Origin: an uncultured Eubacterium sp. | GTDB taxonomy: Bacteria; Bacillota; Clostridia; Peptostreptococcales; Anaerovoracaceae | Length of the DNA stretch: 64,000 bases | NCBI GenBank assembly: GCA_964388765.1 | Contig: CAYMBU010000001.1 | Location: forward strand, 596 to 64,595 | Direction of reading: 5' to 3' | In this document: positions 1 through 12,087 of the stretch, piece by piece | How positions within the stretch are numbered: position 1 is the first letter of the stretch | Layout: each line of letters opens with the position of its first letter | Translations under genes and position numbers: made by a program | Notes under the pieces: model-generated | Told to the model about the DNA's origin: nothing | Databases searched by the model: none | Seen by the model: only the letters and a program-made list of their open reading frames with translations

Positions 1-1
1 C

Positions 2-1111
2 CTGTTTCTTTTCGTCGAGATCTTTCTTCAGGTGGTCACGGATCAGGTCAAGCGTAAGTGTCGAGCTCGACGTCATTACGAGTGATGACAATGTCGACAT
101 GGACGCTGAGAGCACCAGCACGACGACTACCGCGATCAGAAGATCCGGAAGTCCGGAAAGCATCGCAGGTATAACAGAGTCGAATCCGTTGGCCTCGATG
201 TCTACCATGTCTGAGAACAGCCGTCCGAAACCGCCGAGGAAGTAGCACCCTCCTGCTACGAGGAAAGCGAATACTGTGGAGATAACTGTACCTGTCTCAA
301 CAGACTTTTCACTTCTGATGGCGTAGAACTTCTGTACCATCTGAGGAAGCCCCCATGTGCCGAGTGAAGTCAGGATGACTACTCCGAGCAGGTTCAGCGG
401 ATCAGGTCCGAAGAATGACGCGAACACGCCCGGCGTCGAGCTTATCGTTTCATCCGTGACACGGCCCATGCCGTCAAGCGCAGCCATGAAGCCGCCTTTG
501 CTCATCAGTACGGCACCGACGACTGCAACGATACCGACGATCATGATCAGTCCCTGGATGAAGTCGTTTATCGCCGTCGCCATATATCCTCCGGCTATTA
601 CGTAGATTCCCGTAAGCACGGCCATTACGACGACGCAGACGCTGTAGTCGATATTGAACGCCATTCCGAAAAGACGGGACAGGCCGTTATACAGCGATGC
701 GGTGTACGGTATCAGGAATATGAATGTTATGATCGACGCGCCGATCTGGAGCGATTTGTTGTCGAATCTCTTTCCGAAGAAGTCCGGCATGGTCGCCGAG
801 TCGAGATACTGAGTCATTATCCTGGTCCTTCTTCCGAGGATCCTCCACGCCATGAGAGACCCGATGAGCGCGTTTCCTATGCCGATCCAGGTCGCGGCGA
901 TACCGTATTTCCATCCGAACTGTCCGGCATATCCGACGAATATTACCGCCGAGAAGTAAGATGTTCCATAAGCAAAAGCCGTGAGCCACGGTCCAACTGA
1001 ACGGCCTGCAAGAACAAAGCCGTTAACATTGGTTGCGTGGCGCCTGCAGTATAGACCTATACCGATCATGACGCCGAAAAAGATGATGAGTAACAATACC
1101 TTGATAAACAT
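2..1111 (-). CDS. Sodium:solute symporter family protein (PutP/PanF-like), runs off the left edge
   Basis: Not in the ORF track. Hand translation from ATG at 1111: MFIKVLLLIIFFGVMIGIGLYCRRHATNVNGFVLAGRSVGPWLTAFAYGTSYFSAVIFVGYAGQFGW..., with the typical SSS F-LAGR-GPW start. Last visible gene of the ior/paaK operon. Confidence 0.88.
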   Translation of the reverse strand, partial: MFIKVLLLIIFFGVMIGIGLYCRRHATNVNGFVLAGRSVGPWLTAFAYGTSYFSAVIFVGYAGQFGWKYGIAATWIGIGNALIGSLMAWRILGRRTRIMTQYLDSATMPDFFGKRFDNKSLQIGASIITFIFLIPYTASLYNGLSRLFGMAFNIDYSVCVVVMAVLTGIYVIAGGYMATAINDFIQGLIMIVGIVAVVGAVLMSKGGFMAALDGMGRVTDETISSTPGVFASFFGPDPLNLLGVVILTSLGTWGLPQMVQKFYAIRSEKSVETGTVISTVFAFLVAGGCYFLGGFGRLFSDMVDIEANGFDSVIPAMLSGLPDLLIAVVVVLVLSASMSTLSSLVMTSSSTLTLDLIRDHLKKDLDEKKQ

Positions 1112-1129
1112 ACTGTTTTATTTCCCCCT

Positions 1130-1561
1130 TTACAGATCAGCCATGTCTTCCTGGCTGAGGACTTTGATGCCGTTTGATACAAGCGCCGCTGACGCCTTCG
1201 CGTCGTCGTGCACCTTGAAGATCATATAGGCGTTGCTGCCTTCTGCTGAAAGGATCGCGTACATATACTCAAGATTGATATTGTTGTCTGTGAAGATCTT
1301 CAGGACTTTGTTGAGGGCTCCCGGCTCATCAGGGATCTCAGCCGCGACAACAGGAGTCAGCCTGCTGATATAACCCTCTTCATTCAGGATCGTTACTGTC
1401 TCAAGTACGTCGTCTACGATGAATCTCGCAATACCGAAGTCTGTAGTCTCGGCAAGTGAAAGAGCTCTCAGGTCGACGTTGTGGTCCGAAAGTGTTTCAG
1501 TCAGCTGATTCAGCTGGCCCGGTTTATTCTCCAGAAATACGGAGATCTGTTTAACTGACAT
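1130..1561 (-). CDS. Double ACT-domain amino-acid-binding protein
   Basis: KQISVFLENKPGQL and IPDEPGAL..NLEYMYA are tandem ACT repeats; commonly adjacent to paaK. Confidence 0.9.
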   Translation of the reverse strand: MSVKQISVFLENKPGQLNQLTETLSDHNVDLRALSLAETTDFGIARFIVDDVLETVTILNEEGYISRLTPVVAAEIPDEPGALNKVLKIFTDNNINLEYMYAILSAEGSNAYMIFKVHDDAKASAALVSNGIKVLSQEDMADL

Positions 1562-1580
1562 TTTATTTCCCTCCTTAGAA

Positions 1581-2882
1581 TCATATCTTACGCTTGTCGA
1601 TGACGCGGACTGCCTTGCCTTCGCTTCTCGCGATCGTCTTAGGCGCTACAAGTGATACGTTGGCCTTGATGCCGAGCATGGACTTGAGTCCATCTACGAG
1701 CTCATGCTGACGCTCGGAGATCTCGCCCAGGTTGTCTGTGAACATTTCCTGGGTCATTTCGACCTGAACGTCAAGTGTGTCGGTATTGTTCACGCGGTCA
1801 ACGATGATCTGATAGTTGGCCGGATAGCCTTTGTTCAGGAGCACCGTCTCGATCTGCGACGGGAATACGTTGACGCCGCGGATGATCAGCATATCATCTG
1901 TACGTCCTCTCGGTCTGGACATCTTGACGAATGTACGGCCGCATGAGCACTGCTTTCTGGAAAGTGAGCATATGTCGCGCGTACGGTATCTAAGGAGCGG
2001 GAATGCTTCCTTATCGAGTGATGTGAATACGAGCTCTCCCATCTCGCCTTCCGGCAGGACCTCTCCTGTCTCAGGATCGATGATCTCTGCGATGAAGTGG
2101 TCTTCATTTACATGCATGCCGCTCTGCTCTGAGCATTCGAATGAAACTCCCGGACCTGACAGCTCTGTCAGCCCGTAAATATCATATGCTTTGATCCCCA
2201 TCGTCTTCTCGATGTCGTGGCGCATCTCTTCGCTCCATGCCTCAGCTCCGAATATTCCTGCTTTCAGAGGAATTTCCTCCGGCGTCATTCCCATCTCTTT
2301 CATTGTCTCGCCGATATATGCGGCGTAGCTCGGAGTGCAGCAGAGGATAGTTGCCGAGAGATCCTTTATGAACATGATCTGGCGCTCTGTATTGCCGGAG
2401 CTCGTCGGAATGGTAAGACATCCGACCTTATGGCTTCCGCCGTTCAGCCCCGGGCCTCCTGTGAAGAGGCCGTAGCCGTAGGATACCTGACATACGTCTT
2501 CTTTGGTTCCGCCCGCTGCGACGATAGCTCTTGCGCAGCATTCTTCCCAGAGATTGATGTCATGCTGCGTGTAGAAAGCCACGACACGCTTTCCTGTCGT
2601 ACCTGAAGTAGACTGGATACGAACGCAGTCCTTCAGCGGTTTCCCGAGAAGACCGTAAGGATATGCTTCTCTCAGATCCGCTTTGCTCAGAAACGGCAGC
2701 TTGTGCAGGTCTTCTGTCGACTGGATGTCGTCAGGCGTCAGGCCTGCTTCTTCCATTTTCTTTCGGTAGTACGGAACGTCGTCCCATACGTGCCGGACCT
2801 GTTTGACGAGTTTCTCGTCCTGGATCTTCTTCAGTGTTTCTCTCGAGGCACACTCGATCTTTTTCTGGAAATACTTAATCAT
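1581..2882 (-). CDS. paaK: Phenylacetate-CoA ligase
   Basis: QSTSGTTGK AMP-binding loop, YGYGLFTGG, DIYGLTE, RYRTRD, GRTDDMLIIRGVNVFPSQIE. Confidence 0.95.
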   Translation of the reverse strand: MIKYFQKKIECASRETLKKIQDEKLVKQVRHVWDDVPYYRKKMEEAGLTPDDIQSTEDLHKLPFLSKADLREAYPYGLLGKPLKDCVRIQSTSGTTGKRVVAFYTQHDINLWEECCARAIVAAGGTKEDVCQVSYGYGLFTGGPGLNGGSHKVGCLTIPTSSGNTERQIMFIKDLSATILCCTPSYAAYIGETMKEMGMTPEEIPLKAGIFGAEAWSEEMRHDIEKTMGIKAYDIYGLTELSGPGVSFECSEQSGMHVNEDHFIAEIIDPETGEVLPEGEMGELVFTSLDKEAFPLLRYRTRDICSLSRKQCSCGRTFVKMSRPRGRTDDMLIIRGVNVFPSQIETVLLNKGYPANYQIIVDRVNNTDTLDVQVEMTQEMFTDNLGEISERQHELVDGLKSMLGIKANVSLVAPKTIARSEGKAVRVIDKRKI

Positions 2883-2973
2883 TGTCTAATACCCTCCCTG
2901 GTATCTTTCATCCGGTATTTCTTGCTGTCTTTCTTTTCTGCTTACGCGGATTTGATAAAAGTGATAGAAATAA

Positions 2974-3549
2974 TTACATGGCGTCGCGCCCGAGCGCGAA
3001 CGCTTTCTTATTGAGTTCAAGGAACTTCTCAGGCACATTTGCCTCGAGAGCCTTCATCCACGCCTCTTCAGGAAGATCGAAATAATGTGACAGTCTTCCC
3101 ATGAGCACGAGGTTCACTGCCTTGACGGAACCTGCCTCTTCGGCAAGCTTCACGCAGTCAAGGGCGTCAACTTTGGCGCCGCTCGCCTGAAGCTTCTTCA
3201 CGAGATCCCCTGGATATTCCGCCGCGCCTGTGATCACAGGCATCGGATCTATCTGCTGAATGTTCGTAACGATACGGCCGTCTTTCTTAAGGAACGGCAG
3301 CCATCTCGCGGCCTCCAGCAGCTCGAACGATACGATGAAATCTGCTTCTCCCTTATCGATGACAGGAGAATAAACTTTATCTCCGTATCTTACATAAGTT
3401 ACGACTGAGCCGCCGCGCTGGGACATTCCGTGCACCTCGGATACTTTTACGTCGTATCCCTCAGCAAGAAGAAGTGAGCCCAGCATCTTGCTTGCAAGCA
3501 GACTTCCCTGTCCGCCTACGCCTACTATCATTATGTTCCTGGTTTCCAT
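2974..3549 (-). CDS. iorB: Indolepyruvate (arylpyruvate):ferredoxin oxidoreductase beta subunit
   Basis: GVGGQG, SEVHGMSQRGGSV; adjacent to iorA. Confidence 0.93.
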   Translation of the reverse strand: METRNIMIVGVGGQGSLLASKMLGSLLLAEGYDVKVSEVHGMSQRGGSVVTYVRYGDKVYSPVIDKGEADFIVSFELLEAARWLPFLKKDGRIVTNIQQIDPMPVITGAAEYPGDLVKKLQASGAKVDALDCVKLAEEAGSVKAVNLVLMGRLSHYFDLPEEAWMKALEANVPEKFLELNKKAFALGRDAM

Positions 3550-3551
3550 GG

Positions 3552-5321
3552 CTACTCCTCCCTTCCTGTCTTTGGCGTCTCAACAGCAGGTCCCGCTGTT
3601 GATTCCAGAGCGCCGACTTTACAGAGCTGGCTGCATACCCCGCACCCTACGCAGAGTGTATCGTCGACATGCGCCTTGCCGTCTTTTATCGATATCGAAG
3701 GGCATCCGATCTTCATGCACATTTTGCAGCCGACGCATTTGTCTGTGTTGACTCTGAGCGGAGCATCGTGCTTTACATATTTCAGCAGTGTGCACGGACG
3801 TCTTGAAATGATCACAGAAGGCTCCTTTGCCGCGAGCTCTTCTTTGATCGCTTTATCTGTCTCCTCCAGGTCATACGGATCCACGACTCTTACTCTGTTG
3901 ATGCCCATGGCTTTTACCAGAGCCTCAAGGTCGATCTTGCCTGCAGGGTCGCCTTTGATGTTGTATCCCGTCAGCGGGTTCTGCTGGTGACCTGTCATTC
4001 CTGTTATGGAATTGTCCAGAACGATGACTGTCGAATTGGACTGGTTGTACGCGATGTTCGCCAGACCCGTCATGCCGCTGTGCATGAACGTAGAATCGCC
4101 GAGGACACCTACTGTCTTTCCTTCAGAAGCTCCGCCTGTAGCTGTATTGAAACCGTGAACGGCACCGAACGACGCTCCCATGCAGAGGGTCATCTCCATG
4201 GCACAGAGAGGCGGCGCGGCGGAAAGTGTATAGCAGCCGATGTCTCCGAGTACTGTTACCTTGTTCTTTGCAAGCTCATAGAAGAGACCTCTGTGCGGAC
4301 ATCCTGAACACATTACAGGTGGACGTACAGGGATCTGGTCATCGAGTGCCTTTCCTTCGCATACTTCTTCTCCGAATGTCTTCGCGATGAGATTCTGTGA
4401 AAACTCTCCGCAGATCGGAAGGATGTCTTTGCCGCTCACTTCCAGGCCAAGCTTTCTGCAGTGGTTCTCGATGATAGGGTCGAGCTCTTCAACGACTACC
4501 AACTTGTCCACCTTTGCGGCAAAATCCTTTATGAGCTTTTCCGGAAGAGGATTTGCCATTCCGAGTTTCAGAACTGATACTCTGTTGCCGAACACTTCCT
4601 TTACATACTGGTATGAAGTGCTTGACGTTATGATGCCCATCTCTGTTCCGCCGATCTCGATCCTGTTGACCGGTGACGTTTCCGCATATTCGATCAGCTT
4701 CTTTGTACGCTCTTCAACGAACGGGTGGCGCTTGATCGCGTTTCCTGGAGTCATTACATACTTGGAGATAGTCTTTTCATATTCCTTCTTAGGAACGGTG
4801 CGCTCACCCGGATCCACTACGGACTGGCTGTGCGCCACGCGCGTGCACATTTTCAGAAGCACAGGCGTGTCATATTCTTCCGAGATCTCATACGCGAGCT
4901 TTGCGAACTCATATGCCTCCTGTGAGTCTGAAGGCTCCAGCATAGGTATCTTGGACGCTATCGCATGATGGCGGCTGTCTTGCTCATTCTGTGAAGAATG
5001 CATGCCTGCGTCGTCCGCGACTCCAATGACCATGCCCGCGTTGACTCCCGTGTATGACATGGTATACAGAGGGTCTGCGGCAACATTCAGTCCTACGTGC
5101 TTCATACCGCAGAATGAACGTGATCCCGCAAGGCACGCGCCGAAGGCTGATTCCATAGCCACTTTCTCATTCGGCGCCCACTCGCTGTAGACATCGTCGA
5201 ATTTCGCGATCTCTTCTGTTATCTCCGTGCTTGGAGTTCCCGGGTAGCTGGATGCAAAGCAGCAGCCTGCGTCATACAGTCCGCGAGCGACCGCCTTGTT
5301 CCCTAACATCAGTTGTTTCAT
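3552..5321 (-). CDS. iorA: Indolepyruvate (arylpyruvate):ferredoxin oxidoreductase alpha subunit
   Basis: YPGTPSTEI, EWAPNEKVA, MKHVGLNVAAD, CSGCPHR, GDIGCY, GDSTFMHSG TPP motif, C-terminal 2x[4Fe-4S]. Confidence 0.95.
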   Translation of the reverse strand: MKQLMLGNKAVARGLYDAGCCFASSYPGTPSTEITEEIAKFDDVYSEWAPNEKVAMESAFGACLAGSRSFCGMKHVGLNVAADPLYTMSYTGVNAGMVIGVADDAGMHSSQNEQDSRHHAIASKIPMLEPSDSQEAYEFAKLAYEISEEYDTPVLLKMCTRVAHSQSVVDPGERTVPKKEYEKTISKYVMTPGNAIKRHPFVEERTKKLIEYAETSPVNRIEIGGTEMGIITSSTSYQYVKEVFGNRVSVLKLGMANPLPEKLIKDFAAKVDKLVVVEELDPIIENHCRKLGLEVSGKDILPICGEFSQNLIAKTFGEEVCEGKALDDQIPVRPPVMCSGCPHRGLFYELAKNKVTVLGDIGCYTLSAAPPLCAMEMTLCMGASFGAVHGFNTATGGASEGKTVGVLGDSTFMHSGMTGLANIAYNQSNSTVIVLDNSITGMTGHQQNPLTGYNIKGDPAGKIDLEALVKAMGINRVRVVDPYDLEETDKAIKEELAAKEPSVIISRRPCTLLKYVKHDAPLRVNTDKCVGCKMCMKIGCPSISIKDGKAHVDDTLCVGCGVCSQLCKVGALESTAGPAVETPKTGREE

Positions 5322-5369
5322 AAGCCTGTCACCTCTTGATTCATTGCTTTTTCGTCATTTGCTGTTCTG

Positions 5370-5403
5370 AATAAAACAAAGCCGCACAGATATTTGTGCG
5401 GCT
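5370..5403 (-). terminator. Attenuator terminator in the iorA leader
   Basis: Minus-strand RNA AGCCGCACA-AAUAUC-UGUGCGGCU followed by UUGUUUUAUU, between the promoter and iorA. Confidence 0.85.
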
Positions 5404-5446
5404 CAGATCTCATATTGGTTTATCACTTGTTGTCCGTGTCCCTGCA

Positions 5447-5458
5447 GCACAAATATCT
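5447..5458 (-). promoter_or_regulatory. Antiterminator strand of the iorA attenuator
   Basis: 5447-5458 (gcacaaatatct) is the exact 12-nt reverse complement of 5388-5399 (agatatttgtgc), which covers the terminator 5' arm and loop. Confidence 0.8.
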
Positions 5459-5464
5459 CTTACC

Positions 5465-5527
5465 TTAGTCCTTAAAGTAAAAGTAGTAGTAATATTCAGC
5501 TGCAAAGATAACGGAATATTTTCTCAT
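5465..5527 (-). CDS. Tyr/Phe-rich attenuator leader peptide MRKYSVIFAAEYYYYFYFKD
   Basis: 20-codon ORF with AAAGGA RBS, seven consecutive aromatic codons (YYYYFYF); stop codon lies 6 nt before the antiterminator strand. Confidence 0.85.
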   Translation of the reverse strand: MRKYSVIFAAEYYYYFYFKD

Positions 5528-5554
5528 GATCGTTTCCTTTCATTAGTTGTGTAA

Positions 5555-5584
5555 ATAATATCACTATTTTCCTTGGCGTGTCAA
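5555..5584 (-). promoter_or_regulatory. SigmaA-type promoter of the leader/ior operon
   Basis: TTGACA-N18-TATTAT with an extended TGn -10. Confidence 0.7.
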
Positions 5585-5592
5585 GAAAAGAA

Positions 5593-5621
5593 TTGATTTG
5601 AAAATGTTTTTACAGTATTAT
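5593..5621 (+). promoter_or_regulatory. Divergent sigmaA-type promoter for the acyl-CoA synthetase
   Basis: TTGATT-N17-TATTAT upstream of the AAAGGAG RBS. Confidence 0.55.
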
Positions 5622-5666
5622 TTAGTAGAACATTTTAACGATCAAAGTAAAGGAGTTTTATAGATC

Positions 5667-7301
5667 ATGCCTATTACAGATCTGCTGGAAAGAAACAGCA
5701 AATTATATGGAAACGAAGTCGCTCTGGTGGAGATAGATCCTCAGATAACAGAGCGTCAGAGAGTGACATGGAAGGAATACGAGCTTGTACAGCCAACGCA
5801 TAACGAGTTCTACCGCCGTGAGATCACATGGTCGGTCTTTGATGAAAAAGCGAACCGCGTGGCCAACCTCCTCATATCCCGCGGCATCAAAAAAGGCCAG
5901 AAGTGCGCCGTGCTGCTGATGAACTGCCTGGAGTGGCTGCCTATTTATTTCGGTATCCTGAAGACAGGCGCCATCGCAGTCCCTCTGAACTTCCGCTACA
6001 CATCGGACGAGATCGAGTACTGCATCAAGAAAGCCGACGCGGATGTGCTGTTCTACGGACCTGAGTTTATCGGCCGTGTTGAGGACATCATCGACCACCT
6101 CGACAAAGACCATCTTCTGTTCTTCGTCGGAGATTCATGTCCGAACTATGCGGACGACTACTACAAACAGGTCTCCAATTGTTCCAGCGTCGCTCCTAAA
6201 GTACTTATTGAAGATAAAGACAAGGCGGCTATATATTATTCATCAGGCACTACCGGTCTTCCGAAAGCGATCCTGCACAATCATCTGGCGCTGATGCAGT
6301 CTGCCCAGATGGAAGCCATACATCACGAGACGACGAAGAACGACGTGTTCCTCTGCATCCCGCCGCTCTACCATACGGGCGCCAAGATGCACTGGTTTGG
6401 CTCGCTCTACACGGGAAGCCGTGCAGTCCTTCTGAAGGGCAACACACCAAAGGCGATCATGGATGCTGTATCCAATGAGGGATGCACTATCGTCTGGCTG
6501 CTCGTTCCGTGGGCGCAGGATCTTCTGATCGCGCTGGATAACGGCGAGATCAAGCTGGAAGATTACCGCACTTCACAGTGGCGTCTGATGCATATCGGCG
6601 CGCAGCCTGTTCCGCCAAGCCTCATCAAGCACTGGCTTGAATACTTCCCGAACCATCAGTACGATACCAACTACGGCCTGTCTGAGTCCACAGGTCCGGG
6701 ATGCGTCCATCTCGGCATGGAGAATATCAATAAGGTCGGAGCCATCGGTATTCCGGGCTACGGCTGGAAGACCAAGATCGTTGATGAGAACGGCAAGAAA
6801 GTCGAGCAGGGCCAGGTCGGAGAGCTTTGTGTAAAGGGACCGGGCGTCATGCTTGAATATTACAAAGACCCTGAAGCTACGGCCGAAGTCCTGAAGAAGG
6901 GATGGCTGTACACCGGCGATATGGCACAGCAGGATGAAGACGGATTCATCTTCCTGGTAGACCGTAAGAAGGACGTTATCATCAGCGGAGGCGAGAACCT
7001 GTATCCTGTACAGATCGAAGCTTTCCTCAGCGCCATGCCTAAGGTACATGACGTCGCGGTTATCGGTCTTCCGGACAAGAGGCTCGGTGAGATCGCCACA
7101 GCTATCATCCAGGTCAAGGACGGCATGGAGTGCACCGAAGACGAGATCAACCAGTTCTGTCTGGACCTGCCGCGCTACAAGAGGCCTCGCAAGATCATCT
7201 TCGCCGACGTTCCAAGAAATGCCACCGGCAAGATCGAGAAGCCGAAGCTGCGCGAGCGCTACGGAAGCCAGCGTCTCGTAGAGATGGAGAACAAGGGCTG
7301 A
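5667..7301 (+). CDS. Acyl-CoA synthetase / AMP-binding enzyme (class I adenylate-forming)
   Basis: YYSSGTTGLPK, NYGLSE, WLYTGD, DRKKDVIISGGENLYP, PRNATGKI. Confidence 0.92.
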   Translation: MPITDLLERNSKLYGNEVALVEIDPQITERQRVTWKEYELVQPTHNEFYRREITWSVFDEKANRVANLLISRGIKKGQKCAVLLMNCLEWLPIYFGILKTGAIAVPLNFRYTSDEIEYCIKKADADVLFYGPEFIGRVEDIIDHLDKDHLLFFVGDSCPNYADDYYKQVSNCSSVAPKVLIEDKDKAAIYYSSGTTGLPKAILHNHLALMQSAQMEAIHHETTKNDVFLCIPPLYHTGAKMHWFGSLYTGSRAVLLKGNTPKAIMDAVSNEGCTIVWLLVPWAQDLLIALDNGEIKLEDYRTSQWRLMHIGAQPVPPSLIKHWLEYFPNHQYDTNYGLSESTGPGCVHLGMENINKVGAIGIPGYGWKTKIVDENGKKVEQGQVGELCVKGPGVMLEYYKDPEATAEVLKKGWLYTGDMAQQDEDGFIFLVDRKKDVIISGGENLYPVQIEAFLSAMPKVHDVAVIGLPDKRLGEIATAIIQVKDGMECTEDEINQFCLDLPRYKRPRKIIFADVPRNATGKIEKPKLRERYGSQRLVEMENKG

Positions 7302-7317
7302 TACAGATGATATCAAT

Positions 7318-7360
7318 AAAAAGTACGATCGTTCACCCGAGCGACCGTACTTTTCTTTTT
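7318..7360. terminator. Bidirectional intrinsic terminator
   Basis: aaaagtacgatcgttc...gagcgaccgtactttt hairpin with A and T tails between convergent genes. Confidence 0.7.
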
Positions 7361-7373
7361 ATGTGAAACTGCA

Positions 7374-7550
7374 TTACTGTTCTATCTCAGCGCCGAACGG
7401 CATGAGCCAGAGCTTTGCGATCTTGACAAACTGTCCTGCGAACGGTATCCCGATCACCGTGATGCAGCATACTATGCCGGCAAAAAACCATGCCAGCCCG
7501 TTAGCCCAGCCACCGAAAATGAACCATATTATGTTACCCAGTGTTCTCAT
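7374..7550 (-). CDS. Small YccF-domain membrane protein (58 aa)
   Basis: Hand translation MRTLGNIIWFIFGGW...CCITVIGIPFAGQFVKIAKLWLMPFGAEIEQ matches the YccF repeat pattern (LGN.IW..FGG...TIIGIP...PFG). Confidence 0.8.
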   Translation of the reverse strand: MRTLGNIIWFIFGGWANGLAWFFAGIVCCITVIGIPFAGQFVKIAKLWLMPFGAEIEQ

Positions 7551-7689
7551 TATTTATCAGTCCTTTACTTTTCCCCTGTATGTATTTGCCCGTATACCCA
7601 GATAGCACAGGTTTCCGCGGGTGGGTCCCGCTTGCCTATGAGCCTGTATATCTCATATCTATATTACGGCCAGGGGGGACCGGCCGCAA

Positions 7690-7845
7690 TCAGTATTTCC
7701 TGCTTTTGTTCTCAAGCGCTCTCGTGCCGATAAAGCCGAGCAGTGTGACGAGCAGGTCATCGACAGGTCCCGGTACTGCGTCTACAGGTGATACCACGTA
7801 GAGCATGATCAGCGCGACCAGAAGTCCTTTTAAAGTCTTGTTCAT
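7690..7845 (-). CDS. Small DUF1232/YkvA-like membrane protein (51 aa)
   Basis: Hand translation MNKTLKGLLVALIMLYVVSPVDAVPGPVDDLLVTLLG...; Y..SP.D..P...DD motif; GGAGG RBS. Confidence 0.7.
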   Translation of the reverse strand: MNKTLKGLLVALIMLYVVSPVDAVPGPVDDLLVTLLGFIGTRALENKSRKY

Positions 7846-7859
7846 TATCTTTACCTCCT

Positions 7860-8798
7860 TCATGCAACTTCGGTATCCGGCCTTTCCATAGGTCTTTTAC
7901 CGAACATATCCTTCAGTTTTTTCAGAACATTCTCACCCGCCCTGCCGGAGCACGTACTCACGAATCTGGAGTACTCCTCTGCGATCTTCACGCAGTCTAC
8001 CGGGCACGGTACCAGTACAGGTCTTATGCTCTGCCTCAGGAGACTGCTGATCTCCTGCATCTCCTTTGGTGAGATATGACGCTTGCCGTCGCTGAATCCT
8101 CTTATGTCGCCGAGTACCGTGCTCAGGCAGCTTACGGGGATCCTGCCATACCGGTCTGTTACTCTGACTTTATTGTCAGGCACGAGCAGAATGCTGTAAT
8201 ATGGCACATTCATATGTTTCTTCAGCACGTTTCTGAGCACGAGTTCTTTACAGTTTATCGTGTCCGCAAGGTTTTCTGCCTGTACCGGTCCGGAAACCGT
8301 GCTCATGTCACCGGCTTCTGCCGTCCTGATCATTCCTTTCTCGTCCCATATCATGCCCTGGCTGAAATTCCTTACCTCGATCACGAATACGCCGTAAGGC
8401 GTAATGACCACTGAATCGATGTCCGTATGGTCTTTCCCGTTCTGCAGCTCTACTCCGTACAGCACTTCCATCTCCTCGCCCGGGAGGATCCTGCTGAGCA
8501 CTCGTCTGGCACGCTCTTCTCCTGCGATGCTGCTCCACCAGGAGGCTATCGTTTCGCTTGCCTTGTCAAGGTTCCTCTTCAGATCCTGGAAGCCTCTGTC
8601 CGAACCAAGTCCATATGTGTCAGCCACCGCTTCAAGGTCTCTTGTGAAATACTTGCGGTTGACCAGATCCTTATTGAATCTCGCTCTGAAATCTCTGATT
8701 ATCTCGTCCTGGAATTCGCAGAGAAGTGCTGCGCCTTCCTCTCTCGTATACATTTTGCCGGGAACAGTTCCCCTGCAGTTGATATCAACTTTCTTCAT
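7860..8798 (-). CDS. NERD (nuclease-related domain) protein
   Basis: AGEE.A...L, DIDSVVITPYGVFVIEVRN is the NERD core. Start moved to MKKVDINC (8798), behind GGAAAGGAGG. Confidence 0.8.
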   Translation of the reverse strand: MKKVDINCRGTVPGKMYTREEGAALLCEFQDEIIRDFRARFNKDLVNRKYFTRDLEAVADTYGLGSDRGFQDLKRNLDKASETIASWWSSIAGEERARRVLSRILPGEEMEVLYGVELQNGKDHTDIDSVVITPYGVFVIEVRNFSQGMIWDEKGMIRTAEAGDMSTVSGPVQAENLADTINCKELVLRNVLKKHMNVPYYSILLVPDNKVRVTDRYGRIPVSCLSTVLGDIRGFSDGKRHISPKEMQEISSLLRQSIRPVLVPCPVDCVKIAEEYSRFVSTCSGRAGENVLKKLKDMFGKRPMERPDTEVA

Positions 8799-8964
8799 TA
8801 TTGCGTTCGCCTCCTTTCCACATATCCGACGAACCTGTGGTATCTGCTCTATCAAAATCCTTAAACTCTGACTGATCCTGAAGCCCGAGCTCTTCAGCAT
8901 ATTCCGGGTTCTTTTCCGCTTCTTCGATCAGCCTGCATCTCATTATCCTCTGCGCTATGGTCAT
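8785..8964 (-). CDS. Small hypothetical protein (59 aa) coupled to the NERD gene
   Basis: MTIAQRIMRCRLIEEAEKNPEYAEELGL...; AAGGA RBS; overlaps the NERD start. Confidence 0.55.
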   Translation of the reverse strand: MTIAQRIMRCRLIEEAEKNPEYAEELGLQDQSEFKDFDRADTTGSSDMWKGGERNNEES

Positions 8965-9184
8965 TTCTGTTTTCCTTCTTTTATACTTTTCCTTGTGTAT
9001 ATATATAGTACAATGCAAAGCGCCCGCGATAAACGTCCGGTACGGCGGATTAGGCATGGATAATCCTTTTATACATGAGAATTAACCGCTGTATATATGT
9101 TATAATGTGTCAAAGAGGACGGCTTTTGACGGCGCCGGGCTGTCAGCCATGTCCGTATCAGGGGAAGATCCGGAGGTGTCCCGA

Positions 9185-9718
9185 ATGGGTAAAAGGTCTA
9201 CGAAAGAAGATAAAAACGTCTATTTCCAGGCGCGTGAAGATGCAGGCCTCACGAGAGCAGAAGCCAGCGAGGCGACCAGCATTTCGGAAAGCCGCATAGA
9301 AAAGATCGAGCTGCAGAACTCGGTTCCGCATCCTGACGAGGTGAACGCCATGGCTTCAGCTTACGGCGCTCCTTCAATCTGTAATTATTACTGCTCCCAC
9401 GACTGTGAGATCGGCCAGCATTATGTCCCGGAGATACAGACACGTCACCTGACGCAGGCCGTACTTGAAATGCTTGCCTCGCTTAACGATCTCGACGAAC
9501 AGAAAAACCGCCTTATCGCCATAACCGCTGACGGCGTTATCGACGACAACGAGATACAGGATCTCGCAAGGATCCAGAATGAACTCGACCGCATTTCCAT
9601 GGCGATCGACAGCTTCAATCTCTGGGTCGATGATAAGGTCGCATCCGGAGTTATCGACAAGGACAGGCTTACTGCCGCGCGTACCGGTGCTTCAGACAAG
9701 ACTCCGTCTGACCGGTAG
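9185..9718 (+). CDS. XRE-family HTH transcriptional regulator with a Cys/His motif
   Basis: AREDAGLTRAEASE..ISESRIEKIE HTH, then CNYYCSHDCEIG. Start moved to MGKRSTKE after GGAGG. Confidence 0.82.
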   Translation: MGKRSTKEDKNVYFQAREDAGLTRAEASEATSISESRIEKIELQNSVPHPDEVNAMASAYGAPSICNYYCSHDCEIGQHYVPEIQTRHLTQAVLEMLASLNDLDEQKNRLIAITADGVIDDNEIQDLARIQNELDRISMAIDSFNLWVDDKVASGVIDKDRLTAARTGASDKTPSDR

Positions 9719-9748
9719 ATCTGTACTCATGTAATGATTCATATATGC

Positions 9749-9772
9749 AAAAAGCCGGACCTTGGTCCGGCT
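9749..9772 (-). terminator. Intrinsic terminator
   Basis: agccggacc-tt-ggtccggct stem with an A-run, giving a U-tail on the minus strand. Confidence 0.65.
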
Positions 9773-9828
9773 CTCTGCTGTAATGATGATATATGAGGTT
9801 AATATGTTTTTTCCTGATCTTTATTCCA

Positions 9829-12087
9829 TTACTCTGTAACGGTCTGTGACTGTGCGGCGATGTCGCTGCTTTCTTCGTTTTCTTTCTTATCTTTCTTCAG
9901 GATCATGAATACTGCTGCGATGAAGAGCATTGCCATTACGAATGTCCATGCATCTGCAAGAACCATCTTCTTTGTAATGTCTTCTGTCAGGATGAAGACG
10001 ATCACTGACAGTGCCGGCGGAACGATGCCCAGGAAACGTCTTGTCAGGCTGAACAGTCCCGCAATAATTGTAAGTGCCATCAGGATGAGGTTCATGATCG
10101 ACCATGCGCCTGTCTGTACTCCCTGCGGAAGCTCATGATCTTCAATCGTCTCTGCTTCAGGCTCTGCTGCCGCCTGTGGTACCGCATTGTTCTCAACGAT
10201 CTCGCCGGATGTAAGTTCAGATCCCTCTGCTGTCTGAGCTCCTGCTTCAGCAGCTCTTGCTGCTGCATCGATGATGCCTGCGAAGATCTCTGCGCTTACG
10301 GCTGAGTTTGCACCGCTGACTGATCCGGCTGTTCCGTTCATTCCGTTGCTGTCGCTGTTCTCTACAGCACCTGTTGCTGTCTCTTCGTCGTCTGTATCTT
10401 CTGGTGTCTCTGCTTCAGGCTCTTCCTCAGCCTCTGCATTTTCTGGTGTCTCTGCTTCTGACTGTACTTCAAGGTCGTCTTCGATCTGTGCTTCTTCCTC
10501 AGGCTCCTCTTCCGGCTCTTCCTCTGCCTGTGGCTCTTCTGTCTGCTCTGCTTCAGGCTTCTCCTCAGGTTCAGCCTCGTCCTGTGTTTCTGCCTCAGGT
10601 TCGTCCTTGATCTCAGGTTCTTCTGTTGTTTCTGCTGCAGGCTCTTCTTCAGGCTCAGCTTTGTCCTGTGTTTCCTCTACAGACTCTTCTACTGTTTCTG
10701 CTGCAGGCTCTTCTGCCTGTGGCTCCGCTTCAGGTTCTTCAGTCTGTTCTTCTGGTTCTTCTTCAGCCTGTGGCTCTTCTGCCGGCTCCTCTTCAGGTTC
10801 AGTCTCTATCTGTGTCTCTGCTGCAGGTTCTTCTGCCGGCTCCGGCTCAGCGATCTCTCTAGCGATCACGATACCGTCGATATGGATGCCGTTGTTCTGG
10901 TATTTTACTGAGAACCACTTTACTGTGTAGTGTGCTGTATCAAAGTCCTCATAGTTTTCTGTCTTTGTGATCTTCTTTGTTTCTCCGTCGATGATGACTT
11001 TCAGTGTGAGGCCGCCCTCGATCCTTCTTCTCAGGACTTCGAATACCTCTTCATCTGTCGGGAAGTCCATTATGCTGATCTCATACTCTGTGTAGCCTGC
11101 TTCTTCGTTTCCGTTTCTGCTGTCAAAGTAGTTGCTTACAGGTGTGTCTACCATGCCGCGGATCATCTCGTCTGCAGCATCGACTCCGATCCCGTTTGAA
11201 TCCTGGTTTACAACGACTCTTCCGTCGCCTGCGCTCTTCCAGTTCTTCATGAGAGGCTCTTTTGCGTCTCCAGGATATGCTACTGTTCCGTAGATGCCGC
11301 TTACATAATTGCCTGCGTTGTTGTCGACTGCTGTAGGGACCTTGCCTGTGTTGTAGATGCTGAATGTTGTATATCTGTACTTACCTTCGCTGTTGAAACC
11401 GAATGTATTGTTCCATGTTGCGTTCAGCTTTACGATCCCGTCTTTGTTTTTATCAAATGTCTTTGCCTCTGTTTCGAGGTCTGCTGTTGAAGCTGCTTCA
11501 ACGACTTTTCCGGACTCTGTTTTCCATCCCATGAACTCGTATGAGATCTTTCCCTTTGTGATGTCTGCCTGTGTCTGGTAGAGATTTCTTGAAAGGCTGC
11601 GGATCGTGTATGCCTTCATGCCGTTTGCCTTTACTGTCTCACTGTTTCCTTCGATGCCTTTGATCTCCGGAACGAAGCTTGCGTTTGCAGGTGTCTTGAG
11701 ATCATACTGTACTGTGATCTCTTCCTCTTCTTCTTCCTCTTCTGCAGGAGCCTCTTCAGTGTTCTCGTTCTCCGCTGTTTCTGTCTGCGCTGCTTCGGCT
11801 TCAGATCTGCTCTCTACAGTATTTACTGTGTTCTCGTCTTTTGTCTCAGGAGCCGGTGTCTCAGCTTCTTTATTGTCTTCTTTTACCTCAGGAGCTTTCG
11901 TTTCTTCTGTCTCCTGAACGTCTTCTTTCTTTTCTTCTGCTACGTTCTCGATCTTCTGCTCTTCTGTCTCTGTGATCTCTTCCTCACCATACACATACTG
12001 CATTCCGCCTGCTGTGATCTGGAATACCATCATGATCATGATCAGGACTGATATCATTTTTTTGTAACCAGCTTTGAAAGTTCTCAT
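9829..12087 (-). CDS. Secreted acidic (Glu/Pro-rich stalk) surface protein with a C-terminal three-helix membrane anchor
   Basis: Signal peptide; F.GW...W (InlB B-repeat-like) segment; EEPEAE repeats; C-terminal WSIMNLIL..FILTEDI..LADAWT hydrophobic block with a KKDKK tail. Confidence 0.78.
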   Translation of the reverse strand: MRTFKAGYKKMISVLIMIMMVFQITAGGMQYVYGEEEITETEEQKIENVAEEKKEDVQETEETKAPEVKEDNKEAETPAPETKDENTVNTVESRSEAEAAQTETAENENTEEAPAEEEEEEEEITVQYDLKTPANASFVPEIKGIEGNSETVKANGMKAYTIRSLSRNLYQTQADITKGKISYEFMGWKTESGKVVEAASTADLETEAKTFDKNKDGIVKLNATWNNTFGFNSEGKYRYTTFSIYNTGKVPTAVDNNAGNYVSGIYGTVAYPGDAKEPLMKNWKSAGDGRVVVNQDSNGIGVDAADEMIRGMVDTPVSNYFDSRNGNEEAGYTEYEISIMDFPTDEEVFEVLRRRIEGGLTLKVIIDGETKKITKTENYEDFDTAHYTVKWFSVKYQNNGIHIDGIVIAREIAEPEPAEEPAAETQIETEPEEEPAEEPQAEEEPEEQTEEPEAEPQAEEPAAETVEESVEETQDKAEPEEEPAAETTEEPEIKDEPEAETQDEAEPEEKPEAEQTEEPQAEEEPEEEPEEEAQIEDDLEVQSEAETPENAEAEEEPEAETPEDTDDEETATGAVENSDSNGMNGTAGSVSGANSAVSAEIFAGIIDAAARAAEAGAQTAEGSELTSGEIVENNAVPQAAAEPEAETIEDHELPQGVQTGAWSIMNLILMALTIIAGLFSLTRRFLGIVPPALSVIVFILTEDITKKMVLADAWTFVMAMLFIAAVFMILKKDKKENEESSDIAAQSQTVTE
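10380..10850 (-). repeat. Low-complexity EEP(A/E/Q)AE coding repeats
   Basis: Recurrent ttcaggctcttc/tgcctgtggctc units that encode the acidic stalk. Confidence 0.75.

Follow-up and report, generated by a model that had tools for sequence, protein, structure and literature searches.

Methanococcus maripaludis has an aryl-acid route to the aromatic amino acids that runs through indolepyruvate:ferredoxin oxidoreductase (IOR), as cited from Porat et al. in PMC4162585, and rumen bacteria are reported to convert phenylacetate to phenylalanine (Allison and others, as cited in PMC7356843). In Bacteroides, a ligase encoded adjacent to IOR has been assayed as an aryl-acetate-CoA ligase, with an anabolic role proposed in 2026 (PMC13285125). 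On the regulatory side, the uORFC-13-1 motif found upstream of aroF in Acholeplasma contains a mini open reading frame (ORF) with Phe codons and has been read as ribosome-mediated attenuation (PMC8632094). None of this is new as such, be it the idea of the pathway, its enzymes or the type of switch. The locus described here brings them together. It lies at the start of a 64,000-nucleotide (nt) stretch of DNA from an uncultured Eubacterium sp. of the family Anaerovoracaceae (GenBank assembly GCA_964388765.1, contig CAYMBU010000001.1, positions 596 to 64,595), termed the window below, whose numbering is used throughout for its features. Within positions 1-5600, on the minus strand, five co-oriented genes in the order iorA-iorB-paaK-ACT-SSS stand behind a short leader peptide ORF rich in Tyr and Phe codons. 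We suggest that this five-gene unit probably takes up aryl-acetic acids and turns them into aromatic amino acids, and that it is switched on when charged tRNA-Tyr or tRNA-Phe runs short.

The leader region lies on the minus strand and can be read as a set of ordered elements. A sigma-70-type promoter (5555-5584; TTGACA and TATTAT spaced by 18 nt, with a TG), which matches at 11 of 12 positions and is the best site in 6 kb, sits 28 nt upstream of the start of the leader ORF, P0001 (5465-5527). This ORF has a purine-rich ribosome-binding site (RBS) ahead of it and 20 codons, six for Tyr and three for Phe; the aromatic run spans codons 12-18, and seven of the eight codons from 11 to 18 are aromatic. 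Codons 8-12 pair with a segment just past the stop codon to form stem 1:2 (5440-5508), with a small hairpin inside it. The antiterminator strand, region 2 (5447-5458), starts 6 nt past the stop codon, and all 12 of its bases are complementary to 5399-5388. The latter segment is region 3 (5388-5399), made up of the 5' arm and loop of an intrinsic terminator (5369-5404) with a 10-bp stem (5404-5379) holding six GC pairs, a 6-nt loop and a T-rich tail. An ORF with an RBS, a run of sensed codons, an intrinsic terminator, a 2:3 pairing exclusive with it and a 1:2 pairing that overlaps the codons together make up the geometry of a starvation-opened attenuator of the classical trp/phe/his type. We infer from this geometry that the operon would be on when Tyr or Phe is short.

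The energetics of the region are consistent with such a switch. The minimum-free-energy fold of the whole leader reaches -55.6 kcal/mol (z = -6.66, with none of 200 shuffles as good), and the 2:3 duplex is predicted at -20.4 kcal/mol against a shuffled mean of -9.1 (again 0 of 200 as good), the terminator hairpin standing at -17.4. Four sister species (G005, G012, G024 and G041), which with the window's own genome (G000) form a five-species clade, carry an aromatic-rich leader ORF at the same place before an iorA that is 85-95% identical. Their ORFs have 20-22 codons with six or seven aromatic codons in an eight-codon span, and they vary from Tyr-rich to Phe-rich, two of them holding a Trp codon. 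Across the five species the antiterminator duplexes lie between -15 and -20 kcal/mol, with shuffled means of -6 to -9, and the terminators between -15.6 and -17.4, so that the antiterminator duplexes are equal or stronger; when the folds were masked to imitate ribosome stalling, three of the five leaders went over to the antiterminator. Over the five species, 93% of cells retain the 2:3 pairing, with one GC to AU compensatory change, and the terminator, present in all five ior leaders, is nearly invariant.

No Rfam family matches the leader element in a scan of positions 1-10000 of the window. An RcsR1 hit over the terminator, obtained in that scan with E values allowed up to 1, scores 22 bits against a gathering score of 60 and was read as chance. 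Nor was a T-box core motif found in the 500 nt upstream of iorA at any of 109 loci; in the whole assembly of the window genome there are three T-box matches (contigs C19, C17 and C7; L113-L115), one of them above the gathering score, which is few for Clostridia. When that genome was scanned for amino-acid-biased mini-ORFs with an RBS and a downstream terminator, eight candidates emerged, P0001 being the sole aromatic one. Leader-peptide attenuators are thus rare in this genome, with one clear case among the eight candidates. We also note, separately, a 16-codon mini-ORF with an Ile-rich end on contig C104 (5301-5352, plus strand; L118), with a terminator 66 nt downstream, on a contig that ends about 300 nt past the mini-ORF; it could be an Ile leader.

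The most informative evidence for the role of this element comes from a different operon. The leader DNA of the window matches sites before the gene for 3-deoxy-D-arabino-heptulosonate 7-phosphate synthase (DAHPS) in G003 (E 7e-7) and G019 (E 8e-5), two species without an iorA of the window type, and DAHPS is the first gene of the aro operon there. A leader ORF of the same design lies 60-300 nt upstream of DAHPS in 22 of the 29 species compared in the genus (L133-L156), with a short N-terminal part, four to six Tyr codons and about three Phe codons, a region-2 strand and a GC-rich terminator; the layout of stem 1:2 is common to these aro leaders and to all five ior leaders. Beyond the genus, 60 further genera of the family were sampled with one genome each and the 28 best DAHPS loci were assessed, and 22 of these 28 have an aromatic leader ORF before DAHPS (L172-L199). 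The presence of the leader before DAHPS across both genus and family marks the element as an ancestral sensor for de novo aromatic synthesis in this family.

In the five-species clade the arrangement is reversed. The clade forms one group in the DAHPS tree (support 91/88), sister to two species that lack any leader, and its aro operon has no leader ORF in all four of the clade genomes in which the region upstream of DAHPS is assembled, the window genome among them; a terminator-like hairpin is still found before the aro operon in three of those four, again including the window genome. No convincing aromatic leader was seen before iorA in 80 loci of other taxa whose iorA neighbourhoods were compared, or before the genus's other iorA types, which indicates that the iorA-linked leader is confined to this clade. 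A leader before iorA together with none before aro points to a leader that changed operon within the clade. We posit that it is a copy or a relocation of the family's aro-operon attenuator, for which duplication-and-loss and recombination would both be possible paths.

Some observations on the aro promoter regions stand on their own. In the window genome, a 275-amino-acid (aa) ORF with a hydrophobic N-terminus and no Pfam match lies directly upstream of DAHPS (L116:4785-5712, contig C23), in the usual place of the aro leader; G041 has a copy 39% identical to it, and in the window genome a GC-rich hairpin like the terminator of the aro attenuator lies between this ORF and DAHPS. Two species, G022 (L142) and G011 (L155), have neither leader and share another short conserved element with a terminator-like hairpin before DAHPS, and since that element is distinct, control there may be of another kind.

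The gene content of the clade gives the relocated leader a context. Prephenate dehydratase (PDT) was found in 24 of the 29 species of the genus. Its gene mostly shares a contig with DAHPS and lies some 5 kb downstream of it, and it directly follows aroC in the two operons that were read. PDT was not found in the draft assemblies of G005, G012, G024 and G041, which are 88, 96, 76 and 93% complete, respectively; nor does it come after aroC in G012 and G041, whose aro operons are contiguous and carry a small stand-alone chorismate mutase (CM) instead. Neither TrpA nor TrpC was found in any of the five clade genomes, and in the genus as a whole TrpA occurs in only 11 of the 29 species; tyrA and chorismate mutase have been kept. 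By gene content the clade would hence make Tyr, mostly not Phe, and not Trp. With tyrA kept, PDT not found in four of the five species and TrpA and TrpC not found in all five, Phe and possibly Trp would be the products most needed.

The window genome departs from its sisters in this respect. Whether it lacks aro, pheA or tyrA was a question raised by the initial annotation, which had been made from the DNA letters alone, and it lacks none of them: its aro operon (L116) encodes DAHPS, tyrA, aroA, aroC, aroE-K and aroQ, aroB is elsewhere, and a CM-PDT gene lies on a separate contig, C50 (L117). With full shikimate genes, tyrA and CM-PDT, the idea that this organism is an aromatic auxotroph was ruled out. 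Identity to the genus type is no more than 31-32% for its pheA, though 63-64% for its DAHPS, and CM-PDT lies with an Asp/Glu racemase in a segment (L117:1654-3543) that is missing from the four sister genomes, where the flanks match. Contamination was considered for contig C50 and ruled out, as its flanks match the sister genomes at 73-81%. The pheA gene of the window genome hence looks like a separate, foreign-looking acquisition.

The genes that the leader precedes encode a plausible enzyme set for aryl-acid assimilation. All five are on the minus strand, are single-copy in the window genome and are separated, in the order iorA/iorB/paaK/ACT/SSS, by gaps of 2, 91, 19 and 18 nt. The products of iorA (3552-5321; indolepyruvate, or arylpyruvate, :ferredoxin oxidoreductase alpha subunit; TIGR03336, 703 bits against a cut-off of 650.9) and iorB (2974-3549; beta subunit; NF005325, 278.7 bits against 230) both exceed curated equivalog cut-offs, and together they carry the Pfam domains POR_N, TPP_enzyme_C, Fer4 and POR, IorA having the thiamine pyrophosphate domain and two 4Fe-4S domains. 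The third gene (1581-2882) encodes a PaaK-like AMP-forming ligase, putatively for aryl-acetates, with the Pfam domains AMP-binding and AMP-binding_C_2; it falls below the TIGR02155 equivalog cut-off for PaaK (511.5 against 646.3 bits), and among solved structures the PaaK of Bacteroides thetaiotaomicron, 4R1L, is nearest to it (E 2.8e-125). The fourth gene (1130-1561) encodes a stand-alone pair of ACT domains of 143 aa (PF19571; PDB 2F06, E 1.7e-21), and the fifth (1-1111) a sodium:solute symporter (SSS) that belongs to superfamily PF00474 and has the first 370 of its 516 residues inside the window. The SSS gene ends 439 nt past the window start, and the strong terminator that follows it in the assembly indicates that the transcription unit ends there. 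A class I/II aminotransferase encoded elsewhere in the genome (contig C145) is 44% identical to one that is linked to the cluster in Blautia. With an AMP-forming aryl-acetate ligase and IOR in one operon and an aminotransferase available, the genome has the gene set of an aryl-acid route.

The gene of the ACT protein adjoins paaK at over 45 loci in other taxa, including those at which the pair is apart from iorAB. When a complex of the ACT protein and PaaK was predicted, the score was 0.47, with 0.00 for the best control. The mark in this test was reached by 58 of 80 solved complexes and by 2 of 110 mismatched pairs; passes at or below 0.60 are more often wrong than right unless the pairing is likely beforehand, and the result was rated as weak support. 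The prediction runs agree in at least 97% of contacts, with a partner pLDDT (the per-residue model confidence) of at least 85. We consider the ACT protein a candidate amino-acid sensor that is probably tied to PaaK.

Transcribed divergently from the operon, and beyond the attenuator's control, is the gene of a 544-aa AMP-forming acyl-CoA ligase (5667-7301, plus strand), a conserved neighbour of iorAB. In all sister species, and at about 50 of the 80 loci from other taxa (there with 66-82% identity), it adjoins iorA. It may be a second aryl-acid ligase, and the structures closest to it are those of FadD13 and of feruloyl- and 4-coumarate-CoA ligases.

Outside the genus the module occurs in a different setting. 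The iorAB-paaK-ACT genes are 72-81% identical to clusters in assemblies of Lachnospiraceae, Oscillospiraceae, Selenomonadaceae and Treponema from rumen and gut, and the iorA of other species in the genus is 47-65% identical to that of the window. A closer match to other taxa than to the genus suggests transfer or differential loss, and we consider the module patchily distributed and probably transferred. In about 24 of the loci in other taxa an Amidohydro_2 protein is encoded 3' of the ACT gene, and loci of the Blautia type have a class I/II aminotransferase between the ACT and SSS genes; neither is part of the window operon. Genes of these two kinds lie at L036:11885-12745, L039:11269-12081 and L039:12116-13306. 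The Amidohydro_2 family includes non-oxidative aromatic decarboxylases. The genus's other type of iorAB (L013, L014, L015, L017, L019 and L023), about 53% identical, lacks an aromatic leader, and the gene directly after it encodes a class I/II aminotransferase.

From these components we propose the following sequence of events, whose pathway steps draw on knowledge of the protein families and on inference. When charged tRNAs for Tyr or Phe are scarce, the ribosome would stall in the aromatic run of the leader, freeing region 2 (5458-5447) to pair with 5399-5388, so that no terminator forms and RNA polymerase enters iorA; with ample Tyr and Phe, the ribosome would reach the stop codon and cover region 2, and the terminator would form. 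The SSS protein would import the aryl-acetate, and the AMP-forming PaaK-like ligase would convert it to aryl-acetyl-CoA, pulled forward by the release of pyrophosphate. IorAB, with reduced ferredoxin, would then carry out the reductive carboxylation of aryl-acetyl-CoA to the aryl-pyruvate, and a housekeeping aminotransferase encoded elsewhere would complete the amino acid, the ACT protein probably signalling the amino-acid level to PaaK. In evolutionary terms, a leader of the aro type would have been placed before an acquired iorAB-paaK-ACT module in a clade in which PDT was not found in four of the five species.

That the flux would run toward amino acids, and not toward their degradation, is suggested by three circumstances taken together: the switch is shared with the de novo pathway, the ligase is AMP-forming, which favours thioester synthesis, and PDT was not found in four of the five species. 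The anabolic direction therefore appears well supported by comparative genomics. In the four sister species the route is likely to be the only way to Phe, and in the window genome it is a cheaper supplement beside the foreign-looking pheA. Among the possible fluxes, that from phenylacetate to Phe is the best-supported, that from 4-hydroxyphenylacetate to Tyr is likely, and that from indoleacetate to Trp is possible. More tentatively, we would propose a fuller history, in which the family-wide Tyr/Phe attenuator of the aro operon moved onto an acquired aryl-acetate operon in a lineage that lost PDT and lacks the Trp pathway, and in which Phe, perhaps also Trp, is made there only from the phenylacetate or indoleacetate of neighbours; this history may be right, and we hold it with less assurance than the assimilation route itself.

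The initial annotation had recognized a symporter, an ACT protein, PaaK and IorAB co-oriented behind a Tyr/Phe-sensing leader, and all of these parts are indeed present on the minus strand. Its further argument, that induction by starvation implies biosynthesis, gains from the attenuator geometry, from the homology to the aro leader and from the apparent absence of pheA in four of the five species. It had gone on to predict from the dominance of Tyr codons that 4-hydroxyphenylacetate and phenylacetate, not indoleacetate, are the main substrates, and here we would differ. The aro leaders have the same excess of Tyr over Phe codons and govern the common pathway, so a prediction of the substrate from the codon mix is not supported; the sister leaders vary, two with Trp. 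Tyr is, moreover, the product that the clade needs least, and the step from its codons to 4-hydroxyphenylacetate is likewise unsupported.

Several findings weigh against the proposal as a whole or in its parts. The similarity between ior and aro leaders comes partly from low-complexity runs of Tyr and Phe codons. The covariation in the antiterminator amounts to one compensatory pair in five close relatives, equalled by 102 of 500 shuffles, and it is statistically weak because only these five close relatives contribute. Since the window genome can make both Tyr and Phe de novo by a complete route, the operon is not essential there. The absences of genes were read from draft assemblies of 76-96% completeness and all fall in a single clade, so that they count as one evolutionary event. 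Three further points, on the symporter and on the direction of IOR, bear on particular alternatives and are taken up with them.

The alternative that survives best leaves the anabolic operon intact and concerns the symporter, which would import aromatic amino acids or some other solute while aryl-acetates enter by diffusion or through another carrier. Undissociated aryl-acetic acids can cross membranes, and an amino-acid importer would fit the same starvation logic. The SSS protein is nearest to PutP (173 bits) and PanF (134 bits), not to phenylacetate permeases, the ActP-type models giving 32-36 bits against cut-offs of 750-1099; its PDB relatives are sugar transporters, and the ESM Atlas clusters that match it are generic symporters. 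The G041 operon, furthermore, keeps the leader and iorAB-paaK-ACT without an SSS gene. On the other hand, all of the model matches, PutP and PanF included, are below their equivalog cut-offs, and SSS genes 70-79% identical to that of the window are found near iorAB-paaK-ACT in 12 loci of other taxa; within the clade, the gene is part of the operon in G005 and G012. We keep the SSS protein as a putative aryl-acetate importer and consider a symporter for another solute unlikely but worth keeping in mind.

Far less probable is a catabolic operon, in which Phe, Tyr or Trp would be the source of aryl-pyruvates that IorAB oxidises to aryl-acetyl-CoA, for the sake of energy or redox balance, with export of the aryl-acetates. 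IOR was first described in peptide fermentation, SSS proteins can in principle move an acid either way, and the IOR of B. thetaiotaomicron is reported to act oxidatively in vivo, making phenylacetate from Phe (as cited in PMC13285125), which implies that the enzyme runs either way and that context sets the direction. The context here argues for synthesis. If the switch opens solely under scarcity of Tyr and Phe, a catabolic operon would break down just what is in short supply; the homologous leader controls the aro operon; no pheA was seen in four of the five clade species; and the partner ligase is AMP-forming, whereas catabolic clusters have a phosphotransacylase and a kinase or ADP-forming ligases (PMC13285125). 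Least probable of all, if by a small step, is a leader that is a relic or acts otherwise, for example by translation-independent termination, with the operon constitutive or under an unseen factor: the weak covariation and the donor-like clusters that work in other taxa without such a leader would fit it, but each of the five species retains the RBS, start codon, aromatic run, 1:2 stem, antiterminator and terminator though IorA differs by up to 15%, and the same design is kept family-wide before the aro operon.

We return, then, to an aryl-acetate assimilation operon under a Tyr/Phe attenuator, and to what it would mean. Phenylacetate, 4-hydroxyphenylacetate and indoleacetate have known host effects. 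The direction of flux through IOR decides whether clusters of this kind, which are abundant in gut and rumen bacteria, are sources or sinks of these compounds, and a starvation switch shared with the de novo pathway, together with the loss of pheA, provides regulatory and evolutionary evidence for a sink role in bacteria. If the proposal is true, gut clusters of IOR and PaaK would consume phenylacetate rather than produce it, and the long-known dependence of some rumen bacteria on aryl acids would have a genetic explanation; concrete genes, species and an RNA element of about 200 nt can now be named for a physiology that dates from the 1960s. The leader would also be a case of a leader-peptide attenuator re-used for a new operon in Clostridia. 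The literature searched contains no report of the combination of elements, of the relocation of an aro leader or of a loss of pheA paired with it, and nothing there directly linked indolepyruvate with reductive carboxylation, a leader peptide or an attenuator.

Set beside the described systems, the locus shares something with each and coincides with none. As in M. maripaludis, exogenous aryl acids would be activated and carboxylated by IOR to aryl-pyruvates, as a second path beside de novo synthesis (PMC4162585); unlike in that archaeon, a Tyr/Phe attenuator here stands before a single operon in which the enzymes are joined by a putative importer and an ACT protein, and leader-peptide control of the M. 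maripaludis route is not described in the literature searched. The likeness to rumen conversion of phenylacetate to Phe lies in the same habitat and in the predicted chemistry, the rumen case being, in PMC7356843, physiology without genes or regulation. With Bacteroides the window operon has in common the same two enzyme families side by side, and there too the anabolic proposal proceeds from the AMP-forming ligase; no starvation switch is cited in PMC13285125, in contrast to the regulatory and gene-loss evidence that comes from this clade. The uORFC-13-1 motif, an aromatic mini-ORF with a terminator before DAHP synthase, parallels the family-wide aro leader and is likened to it by design; it occurs in another taxon, is Phe-only and, unlike the window leader, has no link to iorAB-paaK (PMC8632094). 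Finally, the leader resembles trpL, pheL-pheA and hisL of E. coli in its ORF of sensed codons, its alternative 1:2, 2:3 and 3:4 pairings and its intrinsic terminator before the first gene, and it differs from them in sensing Tyr and Phe jointly, in belonging to a family of Clostridia and in standing before an operon for salvage, not for de novo synthesis.

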